Positions 54,101-60,100 of a DNA stretch of 64,000 bases are shown here, piece after piece (positions within the stretch are counted from its first letter, which is position 1; every line of letters begins with the position of its first letter). The position numbers were made by a program. Source of the DNA: Escherichia coli (GTDB lineage Bacteria; Pseudomonadota; Gammaproteobacteria; Enterobacterales; Enterobacteriaceae); assembly GCF_045037415.1 (NCBI RefSeq), contig NZ_CP173438.1, one strand, 5' to 3'.

Positions 54101-57100
54101 AAATACGGGTATTCGCGCCGATAACAACCTCACCGGCACTTTCATCAATAATCACCTGGTCTGCAATCTGAACATTTTTCTCTTTAGCATTAAGCTTCAG
54201 ATAGTTTTTCAGTTCCTGTGACAGAAGGTTGGGAATAAGCGGTTGACGCTTCCACCAGTGCGGAATAGCGGGTGGGTTTGTCGCGCTGAGGTTCGCGTCC
54301 AGTAAAAAAGGCAATAAGTCCATAAATAATCCAGATGGCATAAGCTAATAATACATACACAACGGAAAGCGGTGCTAAAGGCACCAACAACCAGCAACGA
54401 TGAAACCAGGCGCTAAATGCACCAATAACACAAACTACGCCGACCCAGATAAGCGGGAACATTGCCAACACCACACCATGTGGCCCGGTGGTGATGAATT
54501 CATTAAACCAGGTAGTGAGATAAATACCAACGCCATAAAGCACAACCAACAGCATAGGAAATATACTGAAGATACCGAAGCGGCTAAATAAAAGTCTTTT
54601 ATGCAGGCGCATACAGACCGCGTAGCCCACAATCCAACGCCGCCAGCGGCGCCACTCCTCACGCGGACTGTTACATTCCTGTGGGTATACGATGCAGCGA
54701 TTCGCCTGCCGAATACGGTAGCCGTTTGCCACCAACGTCCAGGTGAGATCAAGGTCTTCGACTTTAGTACGATCAGAGAAACCGAACTTACGCAATACAT
54801 CAGTACGGAACATCCCGCAGGCACCGCTGATAATAAACGGTGCACCGCCCAGAAACTGCTGTAGCGTGCGCTTCATAACAATCATCGGCAACTTTACGGT
54901 GGCGCGGATATGTGGCAGCAGACCTGCCCCTTTTAACGCGGTGGAGGGAATTCCGCCAACGGCATCAGCGCCGCGCTCAATTTCTGCCAGCATATAGCCC
55001 ATTCCATCATTATCAGGTGGAACGAAAGTATCTGCATCACTTAAAAATACTTGATCACACGTGGCGTATTTTAGTCCATGCATTAGTGCGCCACCTTTAC
55101 CGGTGTTTTTTTGCGTGACGGCAACAAAGCGGTCGCCCCATTTGCGTTTGACTTCCGCCATGACCGCTTCGGTATTGTCCGTGGATCCGTCGTTAACGCA
55201 AATTACCCGGCAAAAATAAGGGTTACGCAGCAGATTATCCAGTGACTGCGCCAGACACGGGCCTTCGTTATAAGCTGGTATAATGGCGTCAATACAGCCT
55301 TTCTTTTGACAGGGTTTACGTCTTAGCGTACTTAAAAACCATAGCAACATTGCTATGGTCATGAAGATAAATAACAAAGTTTTCATTTCTATTACTCCGT
55401 TACAACACCATCTTATGGACAACAAAACCTTCACACATAGAATGACTAACCTGTTGTCCTCGGAATTTGGCTTGAGCAATTATGTATTCTGGCTGTATGT
55501 ATCTTCGATGGATCTGGCTTTTATGCTTTTGTAATGCTAATATTTTTTTATTAAAATGGACCTCATCTACAGATTCAAAAACTTGAGGTAAAAATGACAG
55601 ACATGTACTTGGTGTTTCGTATCCTAGTATTTGAGGAATATAACGACAGGCAACCATTGATGCCTGATAAACAGCAATGTGATCCTGATGCCTGTCAGTA
55701 TTATTCATGGTGTAAACTCGAGTAATTTCCACATCCTGGGGCGTTTCATTCTCAATTATGTATTCCAGAGATGATATCATCTCTTTTATTTGCAAATATA
55801 ATCTGGTATCTTCAAAATTTAGAGGGATTAGTTTATTGCATCCTAACATATTTAATGCTTCTTGTGATTCCTTGTGACGATCAATATACTCTGCGCCACA
55901 GCAACCAGGTGTCATGACAACAGATATAATATATACTTTTTCATTAGAATAATATGAAAGAGATGCACCACATCCTAATTCTATATCATCAGGATGGGCA
56001 CCAATTGCTAAAATGCCGGTTCTTTTTCCCGAAGATGTTGTAGAATTCAACATGTAATCTATCCTTTTAGATATGCCATATGAATCCCCATCATAAATTA
56101 TCACTATCATAAAAATTAATCTTATTAAATATACTTTATATTTACTTTTTCAGAGGCAGAGAAGCATCATTTATGCAACAAGAAGATCTTCATTTCTGTT
56201 AAAAAAACAGAGTTTATATGCTATTACGGATTTCAGTCGTAGCAAGTTGAACTGTGATCGCATTAAGACTAATCTTCTGGCTTGTAAAGGCCTTAGTTCC
56301 GTCATGACTCTCCCATCAGGCCATAGTTGAGCAAAATCCTGAAAGAATTATCACCTATTGTATCTTCAGATACGGGAGTTTTTGTCCAGTATTGTTGGAA
56401 TAATCATGTGACTATATTGTTCTTGTAGTTGGAACGTCTTATAAATAAAACGAAAAGGCAGTAAGTTTGTTGTATTTATTGATATTTTTCATTCAGTTAG
56501 TTGGCAATAATCAGTTATGGTTGTATTCAAAAGTACAGCTAGAACGAAATTAAAATAACGGGAGCATCGTACATGACTTGATATTTCAGAGGGCTAAGTA
56601 TTAATATATTACTACGATCTGTCATCATTGACTATCAATATATTAGTTAGTTAAATATCTCTTTGTGTCATTCTGGCTAGTATATACTCATTATCATGAA
56701 TGCTGCCATGCATAGCTAGGTCATCACCAATTAATGATATTCTCTGGATAATGATTCAAGAGTTTAAGTTCATTGTATATATAAGTTTGTATTCAAAGGT
56801 AATAAATTCCTTGTTTATTATTTCTCATGAAAATAGTTAAGAAGGAGTGAAGAGTCTGTTTTTTTGGTAGGAGAGTCTTTATTTATGTGTTTGCTATTAA
56901 TGAATTTTTGTTAAGGTAGCCTCATTTGTCATAATTTTGCTAATATATGTATCGTCATATGTCGTGTTTTACTAAAAACTTAACTATCATGAACTCGTGA
57001 TAGTAACAATATACCCTTAAGGTAGAACTTTTTCTTGATGAGAAGGTTTAAGTTTGTAGTTCAGAATATTACTGCCAAGATAGTTTATACTAGGATATGT

Positions 57101-60100
57101 ATGGGAACCATACAGAAGATAAGAACAGATGTTAATGTATTATATGCGGCCATTCACCGTATTGAGTGGTTGTTTGAGACATTTTCATCTGTTTGTTTGT
57201 CTTTTTCTGGAGGAAAAGACTCTACTGTGCTGCTCCATCTTACGGCCGATGTGGCTCGCAGGAAGAAACGTCGTTTCTCTGTATTATTCATTGACTGGGA
57301 AGCTCAGTACCAGTGCACAATTGCACACATTCTGAAGATGAGGGAGATGTATCGGGATGTGACGGAGACTTTTTACTGGGTGGCACTCCCCCTGACTACG
57401 GTAAACGGTGTCTCTCAGTTTCAGCCGGAATGGATATGCTGGGAACCAGGTGTGGAGTGGGTTCGTCAGCCACCAGATGACGCTATTACAGATATGTCGT
57501 ATTTCCCATTTTATCGGTATGCCATGACGTTTGAAGAATTTGTTCCGGCATTTTCTTCCTGGTTTGCCGGTAACCGGTGTGGAGTGGCAATACTGACTGG
57601 TGTTCGTGCTGATGAATCGCTCAATCGCTTTATGGGACTGGTGTCTCAGCGCAAACTGAGATATGCAGATGATAAACCCTGGACCACAGCGTCACCTGAA
57701 GGGTTTTATTACACCTTGTATCCGTTGTATGACTGGAAAGCCCGTGATATATGGATATATAACGCCAGAACCCGAGCTATCTACAATCCCCTGTATGACC
57801 TGATGTACCGTGCCGGCGTGCCGTTACGCAACATGCGGGTCTGTGAGCCTTTTGGCCCGGAACAGCGTAAGGGACTGTGGCTTTACCATGTTCTGGAGCC
57901 GGAAACTTGGGCCAGGATGTGTGAGCGGGTGTCGGGTGCTGCCAGCGGGGCGCTTTATGCCAATGAGAGCGGTGCCTATTTTGCCCTGCGTAAGCGTATC
58001 ACGAAGCCACCTCATCATACCTGGCGTAGCTATGCGATGTTCCTGCTGGATGTGATGCCGGAAAGAACGGCAGAACATTACCGTAATAAAATTGCTGTCT
58101 ACCTGCGCTGGTATCAGACGCGGGGCTTCCCGGATGACATCCCGGATGAACAGGAGAATGACCTGGGGAGCCGGGATATCCCGTCTTGGCGACGTATCTG
58201 TAAGACACTCATAAAGAATGATTTCTGGTGCCGGACCCTCTCCTTCAGTCCGAACAAACCCCGGCACTATGAACGTTATCTGCAGCGTATGAAAGAAAGG
58301 AGGAAGGAATGGGGGATTCTGTGACACCTGAGGTGGAAGTATTGAGCAACATGATTCGACAGTACTTCAGTCAGGAACGATCTGAAGAAGAGACCATACG
58401 AGCCCTTAATCATCTGCGCAGGGTGTTGCATGAGGTCAGCCCTTTTGCACAGGAGCCTGTGGACTGTGTGTTGTGGGTGAAAGCGGATGAGGTGGTGGCC
58501 AACGATTACAATCCCAATGTCATGTCTTCCAGTGAAAAAAAACTGCTTAAACATTCACTGGAGCAGGATGGATTCACGCAGCCTGTGGTGGTTTCGGAAG
58601 AGAAGGAGCATTATCTGGTCGTGGATGGTTTTCATCGTCAGTTGCTGGGCAGGAAAGCGGATACGAGAAAACGTCTGAAGGGTTGGCTGCCAGTGACCTG
58701 TATTAATCCGGAAAGAAAGGGACAGGCATCACGTATTGCCGCAACCATACGGCATAACCGTGCCAGGGGAAAACACCAGATAACGTCAATGTCTGACATT
58801 GTCAGGGACCTTTCGCGTCTGGGCTGGACAGATGAGCGTATTGGCACAGAGTTGGGCATGGACCAGGATGAAGTGCTGAGGCTGAAACAGATTAGCGGGC
58901 TGACAGAGCTGTTTCAGGAAGAGAATTTCAGCCCTTCATGGACGGTTCGTTGATATTGTAAAATATGATAGTTGGAGTAAGGGGCAATAGAAGGAGAATA
59001 TTTATCCCACCTTCTTCCGAGTCGGGATAAATCAAAAGGTATTATCCATTGATTCAGTATCTGGGTGAGAGTAAATAATCTAAAAATAGTATTGCGTTGT
59101 GAACTGATATCACTTTTGAATTACAAAGGTATAGGCTCAGTAACCAGCTTTATAAGTCATTGTCGTAGCAATGACTATAGAGTCATGCTGGCGGGAAGAA
59201 TAAATATTCACCCCCAGATGGAAAACAACGTCGAAAAACCTTCAACAAACACAATACGTTCGTTAGCCTGCCCGCAAAGCGGGCAGATCAGGACAAAGAA
59301 TTCCATAACGATTGTTTTTGTCATCAGAAATTCCATACAAAACCTATAGCTGCATTAAAACCTGCTGCAGGAATAGTTTCATGTGCTGTACGGTAGCGTT
59401 TGTCTGTCAGGTTATTGAGTGCTAGGTTAATCCGGTACTGATCCTCGTTACCGAATTCTGTATTTACTGCAAAGTTGAGAGTGGCCCAGCCCGGAACATT
59501 TGTTTCGGTACCGTTACTGTCATCTTTTGCACTAGAGGCAGCACGAATAAAAACATCAGAGATTATGTTGGCCTGACCCATCACAAGAGTATGTTTCAGC
59601 CCTATACGTCCGTTTATCGCTGGTTCTCCTGTATTAGTTGTTTTTAATGTTGAAGTTTCATATTGCCGACGAATTAAATTGCCACTGATATATGGCGAGA
59701 AAACCCAGCCATTATATTCCGCGCTTATTTCCAGTCCCCATGTTTTTGCCCGATCAATATTGTCATAATAATAGTAGCTACTACGGGAGGAGTTGGTGTT
59801 ACCATTGCAAACTATACTGCCATCACAGATCAGACTTGCAATATAATCTTTAGCTTCTGAGTAGTAAACTGCGCTGTCAATCAGCCACTGATTACCATTA
59901 TATCGTGCACCTAATTCAAAGTTATTGGAGTGTTCAGCCTTAAGATCAGGATTTCCGTATGTGACACTGCCGCCCGCAGATGTCTGCATAAAAAGCTGGG
60001 AGAGTGTGGGAAATACGTAGCCTTGCGCGAACGCAGCGCGTAACTCCAAGTTATCGAAACCTGAATAGCGCAGGCTTGTAGATGTTACCATTTCGTGATC

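Follow-up and report, generated by a model that had tools for sequence, protein, structure and literature searches.

The ibrA-ibrB gene pair of Escherichia coli: a PP-loop enzyme and a ParB-like protein that may act together on DNA

Introduction

What do a PP-loop enzyme and a ParB-like protein do together? This question is raised by the gene pair ibrA-ibrB, which we analysed in a stretch of 64,000 nucleotides (nt) from Escherichia coli (contig NZ_CP173438.1 of NCBI RefSeq assembly GCF_045037415.1), called the window in the following; all positions given refer to it. As far as the work of Sandt (2002) is reported in PMC7649339, ibrA and ibrB together switch on the eib genes, which are silent prophage genes. 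The pair is already known, named and annotated: the enzyme and its ParB-type partner are strictly linked and are found in many phyla, in a metagenome-assembled genome (MAG) of an Asgard archaeon, in phages, on plasmids and in E. coli K-12. An earlier note on this DNA had recognised the pair and had suggested a DNA-directed function comparable to that of DndC-type modification modules. Here, we tentatively favour the reading that ibrA-ibrB is a self-contained, translationally coupled module which would act enzymatically on DNA, with eib activation as a consequence, and we give up the comparison with DndC.

Results

Gene layout

Both open reading frames (ORFs) are intact, co-directional and overlap by 16 nt. 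The genes and the features within them are as follows (aa, amino acids).

57101..58324, plus strand: ibrA, 407 aa, PP-loop ATP-pyrophosphatase-like enzyme with a fold of the PAPS (phosphoadenosine phosphosulfate) reductase type plus DUF3440
57206..57223, plus strand: SGGKDS PP-loop, IbrA residues 36-41, kept in 75-80 of 81 homologues
57815..58321, plus strand: DUF3440, all-helical C-terminal domain, IbrA residues ~239-407; Pfam PF11922 at 8e-25, helices in the model
58298..58303, plus strand: AGGAGG, Shine-Dalgarno sequence of ibrB within the 3' end of ibrA, 5 nt before the ibrB ATG
58309..58953, plus strand: ibrB, 214 aa, ParB/Srx-fold protein with a C-terminal helix-turn-helix (HTH)
58624..58638, plus strand: DGFHR motif, IbrB residues 106-110, counterpart of the GERR nucleotide-binding motif of ParB/Noc
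58750..58776, plus strand: RHNRARGKH, arginine-rich motif, IbrB residues 148-156, with R148, H149, N150, A152, R153 and H156 invariant

With the AGGAGG sequence inside the end of ibrA and the 16-nt overlap, the layout fits translational coupling of ibrA and ibrB. The earlier note had placed the pair at 57038-58953. The end of this span, which is the ibrB stop codon, stands, whereas the start has to be moved: the ATG at 57101, which is also the RefSeq start, is the most likely one, because TAGGA, a Shine-Dalgarno sequence, lies 5 nt before it and the product has 407 aa, which is usual for the homologues (403-412 aa). The ATG at 57038 is in frame, 21 codons upstream, and has no ribosome-binding site. 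The assignment to ibrA/ibrB itself is in good agreement with the copy in Escherichia phage PhiR5_2, which is annotated as IbrA/IbrB and shares 91.6% (IbrA) and 88% (IbrB) protein identity with the pair of the window.

Domains and conserved residues of IbrA

The SGGKDS PP-loop of the PAPS-reductase family, as read earlier in the first gene, is accompanied by two matches to Pfam PAPS_reduct (PF01507, 6e-7 and 2e-6). Among the PHROG families, IbrA matches 2302 at 5e-83 and 15645 at 7e-138; chance would not produce matches of this kind. Conservation was judged from an alignment of 81 homologues that reaches down to 27% identity. Here, D65, E67, D216 and Y232 are invariant, R169, E172, S173, R176, Y228 and N229 are also kept, and the motifs SGGKDS, D-x-E, G-x-R-x-x-E-S-x-x-R and D-W-x-x-x-D-x-W are invariant or nearly so. 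That residues of a catalytic type persist over such a distance would count for an enzymatic function.

No cysteine is invariant among these homologues, and no fixed set of at least three cysteines recurs. The best-conserved cysteine column of the family (66 of 81) holds an alanine in the IbrA of the window, and the C-terminus of this protein (...RRKEWGIL) carries no cysteine.

DUF3440 did not lead to any other family: its profile gave only noise against the PDB sequences (top match REC114 at E 0.75), and a Foldseek search against AFDB50 returned family members only. Ten long IbrA homologues were inspected for fusions; a ParB fusion occurs in none of them and an ABC-ATPase fusion in one. As a side observation, a contig of the mycobacteriophage Gaia type (L155:10838-11128) encodes a stand-alone protein of 96 aa which corresponds to the last ~70 residues of DUF3440 only, carries the motif PSW..I...L.ND and aligns with positions 124-195 of PHROG 15645.

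Fold and motifs of IbrB

That the overlapping second gene carries a ParB/Srx-type DGFHR motif was likewise recognised correctly in the earlier note. Pfam detects IbrB weakly (ParB_N, 4e-3), and in PHROG the protein matches the ParB-like family 2159 at 2e-86. The predicted structure (mean confidence, pLDDT, 88) matches pNOB8 ParB-N, PadC, KorB, sulfiredoxin, SbnI and Spo0J; KorB is among the best matches, the VirB core is also found, and the C-terminus of the model matches HTH domains. The profile and structure comparison proposed earlier places IbrB with ParB, Noc, KorB and HTH proteins; the DUF3440 part of IbrA, in contrast, stayed without a match outside its family. A sequence search for solved structures found none for IbrA or IbrB.

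In the family profile of IbrB, DGFHR falls on the position of GERR in Noc and ParB. In 85 homologues, 21 positions are invariant, among them D106, G107 and R110, and this is, at the level of the alignment, an enzyme-like degree of conservation. The protein of the window shows the motifs NDYNPN, DGFHR and RHNRARG of the family together with the C-terminal HTH. It ends approximately 13 residues after the HTH; because IbrB comprises only 214 aa and stops just past this domain, it lacks the C-terminal dimerisation domain of the ParB clamp.

Linkage of the pair and accessory genes

Gene neighbourhoods were compared in 164 loci, of which 159 were fetched from one-genome-per-species and viral collections and five are phage and plasmid loci that were added. 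For the fetched loci, gene calling was crude, the longest ORF being taken. In 152 of the 164 loci, ibrA and an IbrB-type ORF lie on the same strand, adjacent or at most 1 kb apart, and mostly overlap. These loci come from Enterobacterales, Bacteroidota, Firmicutes, Verrucomicrobia, Alphaproteobacteria, an Asgard archaeal MAG and viral contigs. The usual order is A then B with an overlap of 4-28 nt (commonest junctions -4, -11, -28 and -16 nt), and many viral contigs have the order B then A. IbrA occurs without an IbrB-type ORF in ten loci, four of which are cut by a contig end.

When all neighbouring ORFs were clustered all-against-all, only two further recurrent partners emerged. The first is an SNF2-related helicase immediately upstream of ibrA in 32 loci (17 genomes from several phyla and 15 viral loci), with a median gap of -4 nt to ibrA; this constitutes a three-gene form of the module (e.g., L035:1202-2458). 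The second, here termed c4, is a domain of ~140 aa that was found in 57 of the 80 viral loci (e.g., L127:6827-7972 and L156:7640-8065). In 35 of them it forms a separate gene between ibrB and ibrA; in the other 22, one sequence and the length of the ORFs suggest a fusion to the C-terminal end of IbrB. Its motif is W..SCEH.LTN...NRIAW.GQAACC; c4 has no match in PHROG, Pfam or PDB, and hhalign shows no relation to IbrA.

On viral contigs, the pair is further surrounded by genes of replication and recombination, among them genes for DnaB-like and SF2 helicases, for an exonuclease and for a VRR-NUC-like protein. A desulfurase, SMC-like ATPase, methyltransferase or nuclease does not recur as a conserved neighbour of the pair in the 164 loci. 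A single locus (L158:469-3798) shows an IbrA homologue without IbrB, followed by two ORFs that resemble, by sequence motif only, a thymidylate synthase (ThyA-like) and a Dam-like methyltransferase (DPPY motif).

Distribution and selection

Copies of the ibrAB locus with 100% identity were found in 841 complete E. coli genomes. At an identity of at least 80% (nt), copies occur in 2138 of 5426 complete E. coli genomes (about 40%), with up to four per genome. Homologues are present on 874 plasmids and in 224 phage records. On a Klebsiella virulence plasmid the pair lies between fecIRA and iroBCDN, on the E. coli plasmid p100 it adjoins a YadA-like adhesin gene, and in Flavobacterium phage FCL-2 it is located between terminase and portal; prophages also carry the pair. 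The copy in the tellurite island of O157:H7 (L167:8870-9139) is directly followed by a gene for a PerC-family regulator, and in a published transcriptome adherence to epithelial cells is accompanied by a joint rise of ibrB and perC.

Between mobile copies, the ratio of nonsynonymous to synonymous substitutions (dN/dS) is 0.05-0.10 for ibrA as well as ibrB, i.e., both genes are under strong purifying selection. Two side observations concern damaged copies. Shigella plasmids (209-226 kb) hold short ibrA remnants (11-13% of the length), some of them beside an annotated gene with a ParB N-terminal domain. In several otherwise identical E. coli genomes, one of the insertion sequences (IS) IS1, IS5 or ISEc52 is annotated in the ibrB locus and IbrB is sometimes listed twice, which suggests that IS insertions split ibrB and that ibrAB is dispensable in those strains.

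Relatives in K-12 and in a second island

A conserved order of genes in enterobacteria (ahpF, ahpC, dsbG, a LysR gene, A, B, ybdL) pointed to ybdO(citR)-ybdN-ybdM of K-12. The genes ybdN-ybdM (b0602 / b0601; NC_000913.3 634747-636569, L170:6748-8570) have the same order and an overlapping junction as well, and their products are 59% (IbrA-YbdN) and 54% (IbrB-YbdM) identical to those of the window over the full length. Synteny with ahpCF, ybdO and ybdL extends to up to ~11 enterobacterial species in the sample. The two pairs differ in their setting: ybdNM is a core-genome operon that is repressed by the adjacent LysR protein YbdO/CitR, whereas ibrAB of the window lies in a genomic island and has no adjacent regulator. 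The IbrAB/YbdNM family has both core-genome and mobile forms. According to the literature, CitR represses ybdNM, and deletion of citR raises ybdN by 5.5 log2 units (45-fold) together with the flagellar and cys regulons; YbdM has been described as 'completely uncharacterized'.

A further copy of ibrAB resides in an island adjacent to ynfF. It shares 91-92% (IbrA) and 88% (IbrB) protein identity with the pair of the window, is flanked by antirepressor genes and agrees in gene arrangement with part of phage PhiR5_2. It probably corresponds to the original 'IbrAB island' of ECOR-9. The copy of the window differs from it in genomic site and allele (synonymous divergence, dS, 0.9-1.4) and has no flanking antirepressor, Panacea or LPD38 genes.

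Genomic surroundings in the window

The window is part of the E. coli chromosome and, over positions 41000-64000, shares 99.996% identity with strain 4/1-1. The pair is located in a large IS-rich island that lies between the yeeZ/sbcB side and the cobUST / asn-tRNA side. Both the AT-rich region and the polysaccharide-like operon that had been described beside it are present. The operon lies upstream of ibrA on the opposite strand and encodes a PIG-L deacetylase, a glycosyltransferase, an acetyltransferase and YaiO; it is separated from ibrA by the AT-rich stretch of 1 kb:

56111..57100, no strand: AT-rich intergenic region, 30-34% G+C, between the divergent PIG-L operon and ibrA

This region is presumed to have promoter or regulatory functions. 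It holds no ORF of more than 46 aa; promoter-like sites are not more frequent than in shuffled sequence, and no terminator scored. The upstream regions of seven ibrAB copies have no sequence or motif in common, an Rfam scan of 55000-60000 gave no match, and no convincing repeats or palindromes were found near ibrAB. Downstream, ibrB faces a convergent TonB-dependent receptor gene (59324-61498).

Elsewhere in the same island, a second TonB-dependent receptor gene is accompanied by an ABC importer of the FecCD type (23584-28590, plus strand), and a three-gene operon (18150-22503, minus strand) encodes a dynamin-family protein, an RdcB-family protein and a patatin-like phospholipase. A segment of 5.2 kb with two IS66-family transposase genes (29246-34484) is absent from strain 4/1-1, and ISEc12 is present once in the window and twice in tandem in that strain.

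Discussion

A possible enzymatic module on DNA

The favoured reading builds on what is established, namely the folds, the motifs in both proteins, the linkage of the two genes, the linkage of the helicase and the purifying selection. From these we infer ATP use, DNA as the substrate and a link to transcription. IbrB would bind DNA via its HTH and a nucleotide via the ParB/Srx pocket, and would thereby position IbrA. IbrA, a putative PP-loop ATP pyrophosphatase of the CysD / FAD-synthase / PAPS-reductase branch, would spend ATP on adenylating a group of the DNA or of a DNA-bound partner, which would thereby be activated. The expected outcome is a covalent change that needs neither a cysteine nor an iron-sulfur cluster and therefore would not be phosphorothioation. 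The activation of eib would be a downstream effect of this action on DNA.

DNA is a plausible target in view of the gene context: the linkage with the SNF2-related helicase, the replication and recombination neighbours on viral contigs, the position between terminase and portal in FCL-2, and the ThyA- and Dam-like ORFs all point in this direction. In so far, the DNA-directed role that had been suggested earlier gains support, to which the ParB N-domain and the HTH of IbrB contribute.

Several points weigh against an enzymatic action on DNA. No member of the family is known to hydrolyse ATP, to bind DNA or to leave a modified base, and no contact between A and B is known; a full-text search of the literature found no mechanism study of IbrA, IbrB, YbdN or YbdM. 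The sole experimental phenotype, eib activation as recounted in PMC7649339, is transcriptional. No restriction or reader gene is conserved nearby in the 164 loci. This sample is biased, since it consists of the 80 best hits from each collection and its viral set is dominated by a few metagenomes. The copies in Enterobacteriaceae adjoin virulence genes, iron genes and regulators, not genes of DNA metabolism. Moreover, a chromosomal operon under a LysR repressor, such as ybdNM, is unusual for a DNA-modification system.

Alternative explanations

The main rival, possible if doubtful, is a function as a transcriptional co-activator or anti-silencer without any DNA chemistry. IbrB would then bind to and spread on horizontally acquired, AT-rich DNA silenced by H-NS in the manner of the ParB-family regulators VirB and KorB, and IbrA would load IbrB, modify it or supply a nucleotide cofactor. 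This would agree with the activation of eib by both genes, which is the only reported phenotype, and with KorB and the VirB core among the structural matches of IbrB. It would also agree with the AT-rich regions and the virulence or iron loci that adjoin copies of the pair (iroBCDN and fecIRA, the YadA-like adhesin gene, the TonB-dependent receptor gene), with the PerC-family regulator behind the O157 copy and the joint rise of ibrB and perC, and with the broad response to the loss of CitR. However, IbrB does not have the dimerisation domain of the clamp, DGFHR stands in place of GERR, and the upstream regions of different copies show no common DNA site, although one might be located in another place. 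Nor would this account explain why catalytic residues of IbrA are invariant, why the SNF2 gene is linked, or why FCL-2 has the pair between terminase and portal.

Less probable is a target other than DNA. IbrAB might act on a nucleotide or small molecule (e.g., by blunting or triggering nucleotide-based phage defence), on a base of tRNA or another RNA as TilS does, or on a protein. The ParB/Srx fold does include small-molecule and protein kinases (SbnI, free serine kinase and sulfiredoxin), the pair in prophages of the PhiR5_2 type adjoins genes for a Panacea-domain protein and an LPD38 polyvalent protein, and derepression of ybdNM goes along with induction of the cys regulon. Double-stranded DNA is suggested instead by the HTH of IbrB and by the close linkage of the SNF2 gene, and genes of nucleotide signalling are not among the conserved neighbours in the 164 loci.

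A phosphorothioation module in the manner of DndC/DndB, the strong form of the comparison drawn in the earlier note, is very improbable. It could draw on the fact that the same two superfamilies are paired and on weak matches of IbrA in PADLOC (release 2023), namely to DndC (E 5.5e-4 and 8e-3, no stretch passing) and BrxP (E 8e-6), the latter restricted to residues 18-95, i.e., the PP-loop region. The defining features of DndC are a 4Fe-4S cluster held by three cysteines, a further cysteine dyad and the partners DndA/IscS, DndD and DndE; its C280 is essential. The comparison fails on chemistry and on system architecture: we reject the analogy because IbrA has no invariant cysteine (with alanine in the best column), because no partners are linked, and because the model matches are weak and cover the PP-loop only. 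DndA/IscS, DndD, DndE and DndFGH are linked neither in the window nor among the conserved neighbours of the 164 loci, and the 14 NCBIfam hits of IbrA at E<=0.01 include no DndC model. Sulfur insertion by IbrA is very unlikely.

An ordinary PAPS reductase of sulfur assimilation (CysH), as the RefSeq product name 'phosphoadenosine phosphosulfate reductase' and the Pfam match would have it, can practically be dismissed, since IbrA scores far below the model cut-offs (32.4 vs 154 bits for PRK02090, 29.5 vs 254 bits for TIGR02057), lacks the C-terminal catalytic cysteine, keeps the canonical ATP-type PP-loop, and has the extra DUF3440 and an obligatory pairing with a ParB-like gene.

Two further candidates were rejected. 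For BREX type 4, to which BrxP belongs, IbrB has no PADLOC hit and no BrxC, PglZ or BrxL genes are nearby; for a ParB of plasmid partition, both ParA and the dimerisation domain are missing.

Significance

If the pair marks DNA or counteracts its silencing, this would explain how islands, virulence plasmids and phages control the expression or protection of their DNA, and it would provide a function for two y-genes of K-12. Experimental handles are the cysteine-free chemistry, the linked helicase, the new accessory domain and the invariant residues, which can be mutated.

Comparison with known systems

The pair described in ECOR-9 (Sandt, Hopper & Hill 2002) agrees with that of the window in family and architecture; eib activation was reported for the genes of ECOR-9. 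Within the superfamily, NinC of lambda and the phage 'PAPS reductases' (PHROG 424) resemble IbrA in being phage-borne and of unknown function, but IbrA matches PHROG 424 only weakly (3e-18, vs 5e-83 for PHROG 2302), and the two are separate families. FAD synthase and CysD are metabolic enzymes that act on small molecules and, unlike IbrA, have neither DUF3440 nor a ParB partner. A preprint of 2026 pairs a nucleoid protein with a 'PAPS reductase' and ParBc, with no detail that is applicable to ibrAB.

On the side of IbrB, KorB, VirB and Noc likewise combine a ParB N-domain with an HTH and have a transcription-related role. IbrB differs in being shorter and in depending on an enzyme partner; DGFHR takes the place of GERR, and the C-terminal dimerisation domain is missing.

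The closest parallels for the pair as a whole are found in DNA modification. Like ibrAB, DndB-DndC places a PAPS-reductase-like PP-loop enzyme beside a protein of the ParB superfamily, on horizontally moving DNA. IbrA differs from DndC in having neither the Fe-S cysteines nor the cysteine dyad and in carrying DUF3440, and the resemblance of IbrAB to Dnd does not go beyond the superfamilies of the two paired proteins. In DpdA-DpdB, which introduces 7-deazaguanine modifications into DNA, a ParB-like NTPase is the DNA-side partner of a base-modifying enzyme; DpdA, however, is a transglycosylase of the TGT family and not a PP-loop enzyme, and no Dpd genes are linked here. Taken further than we would defend with any firmness, IbrAB/YbdNM could be an unrecognised, very widespread, cysteine-independent and ATP-driven DNA-marking system with optional SNF2 translocase and c4 subunits, whose mark would control the silencing or restriction of mobile DNA, and thus a third ParB-partnered modifier beside Dnd and Dpd that is present even in K-12.

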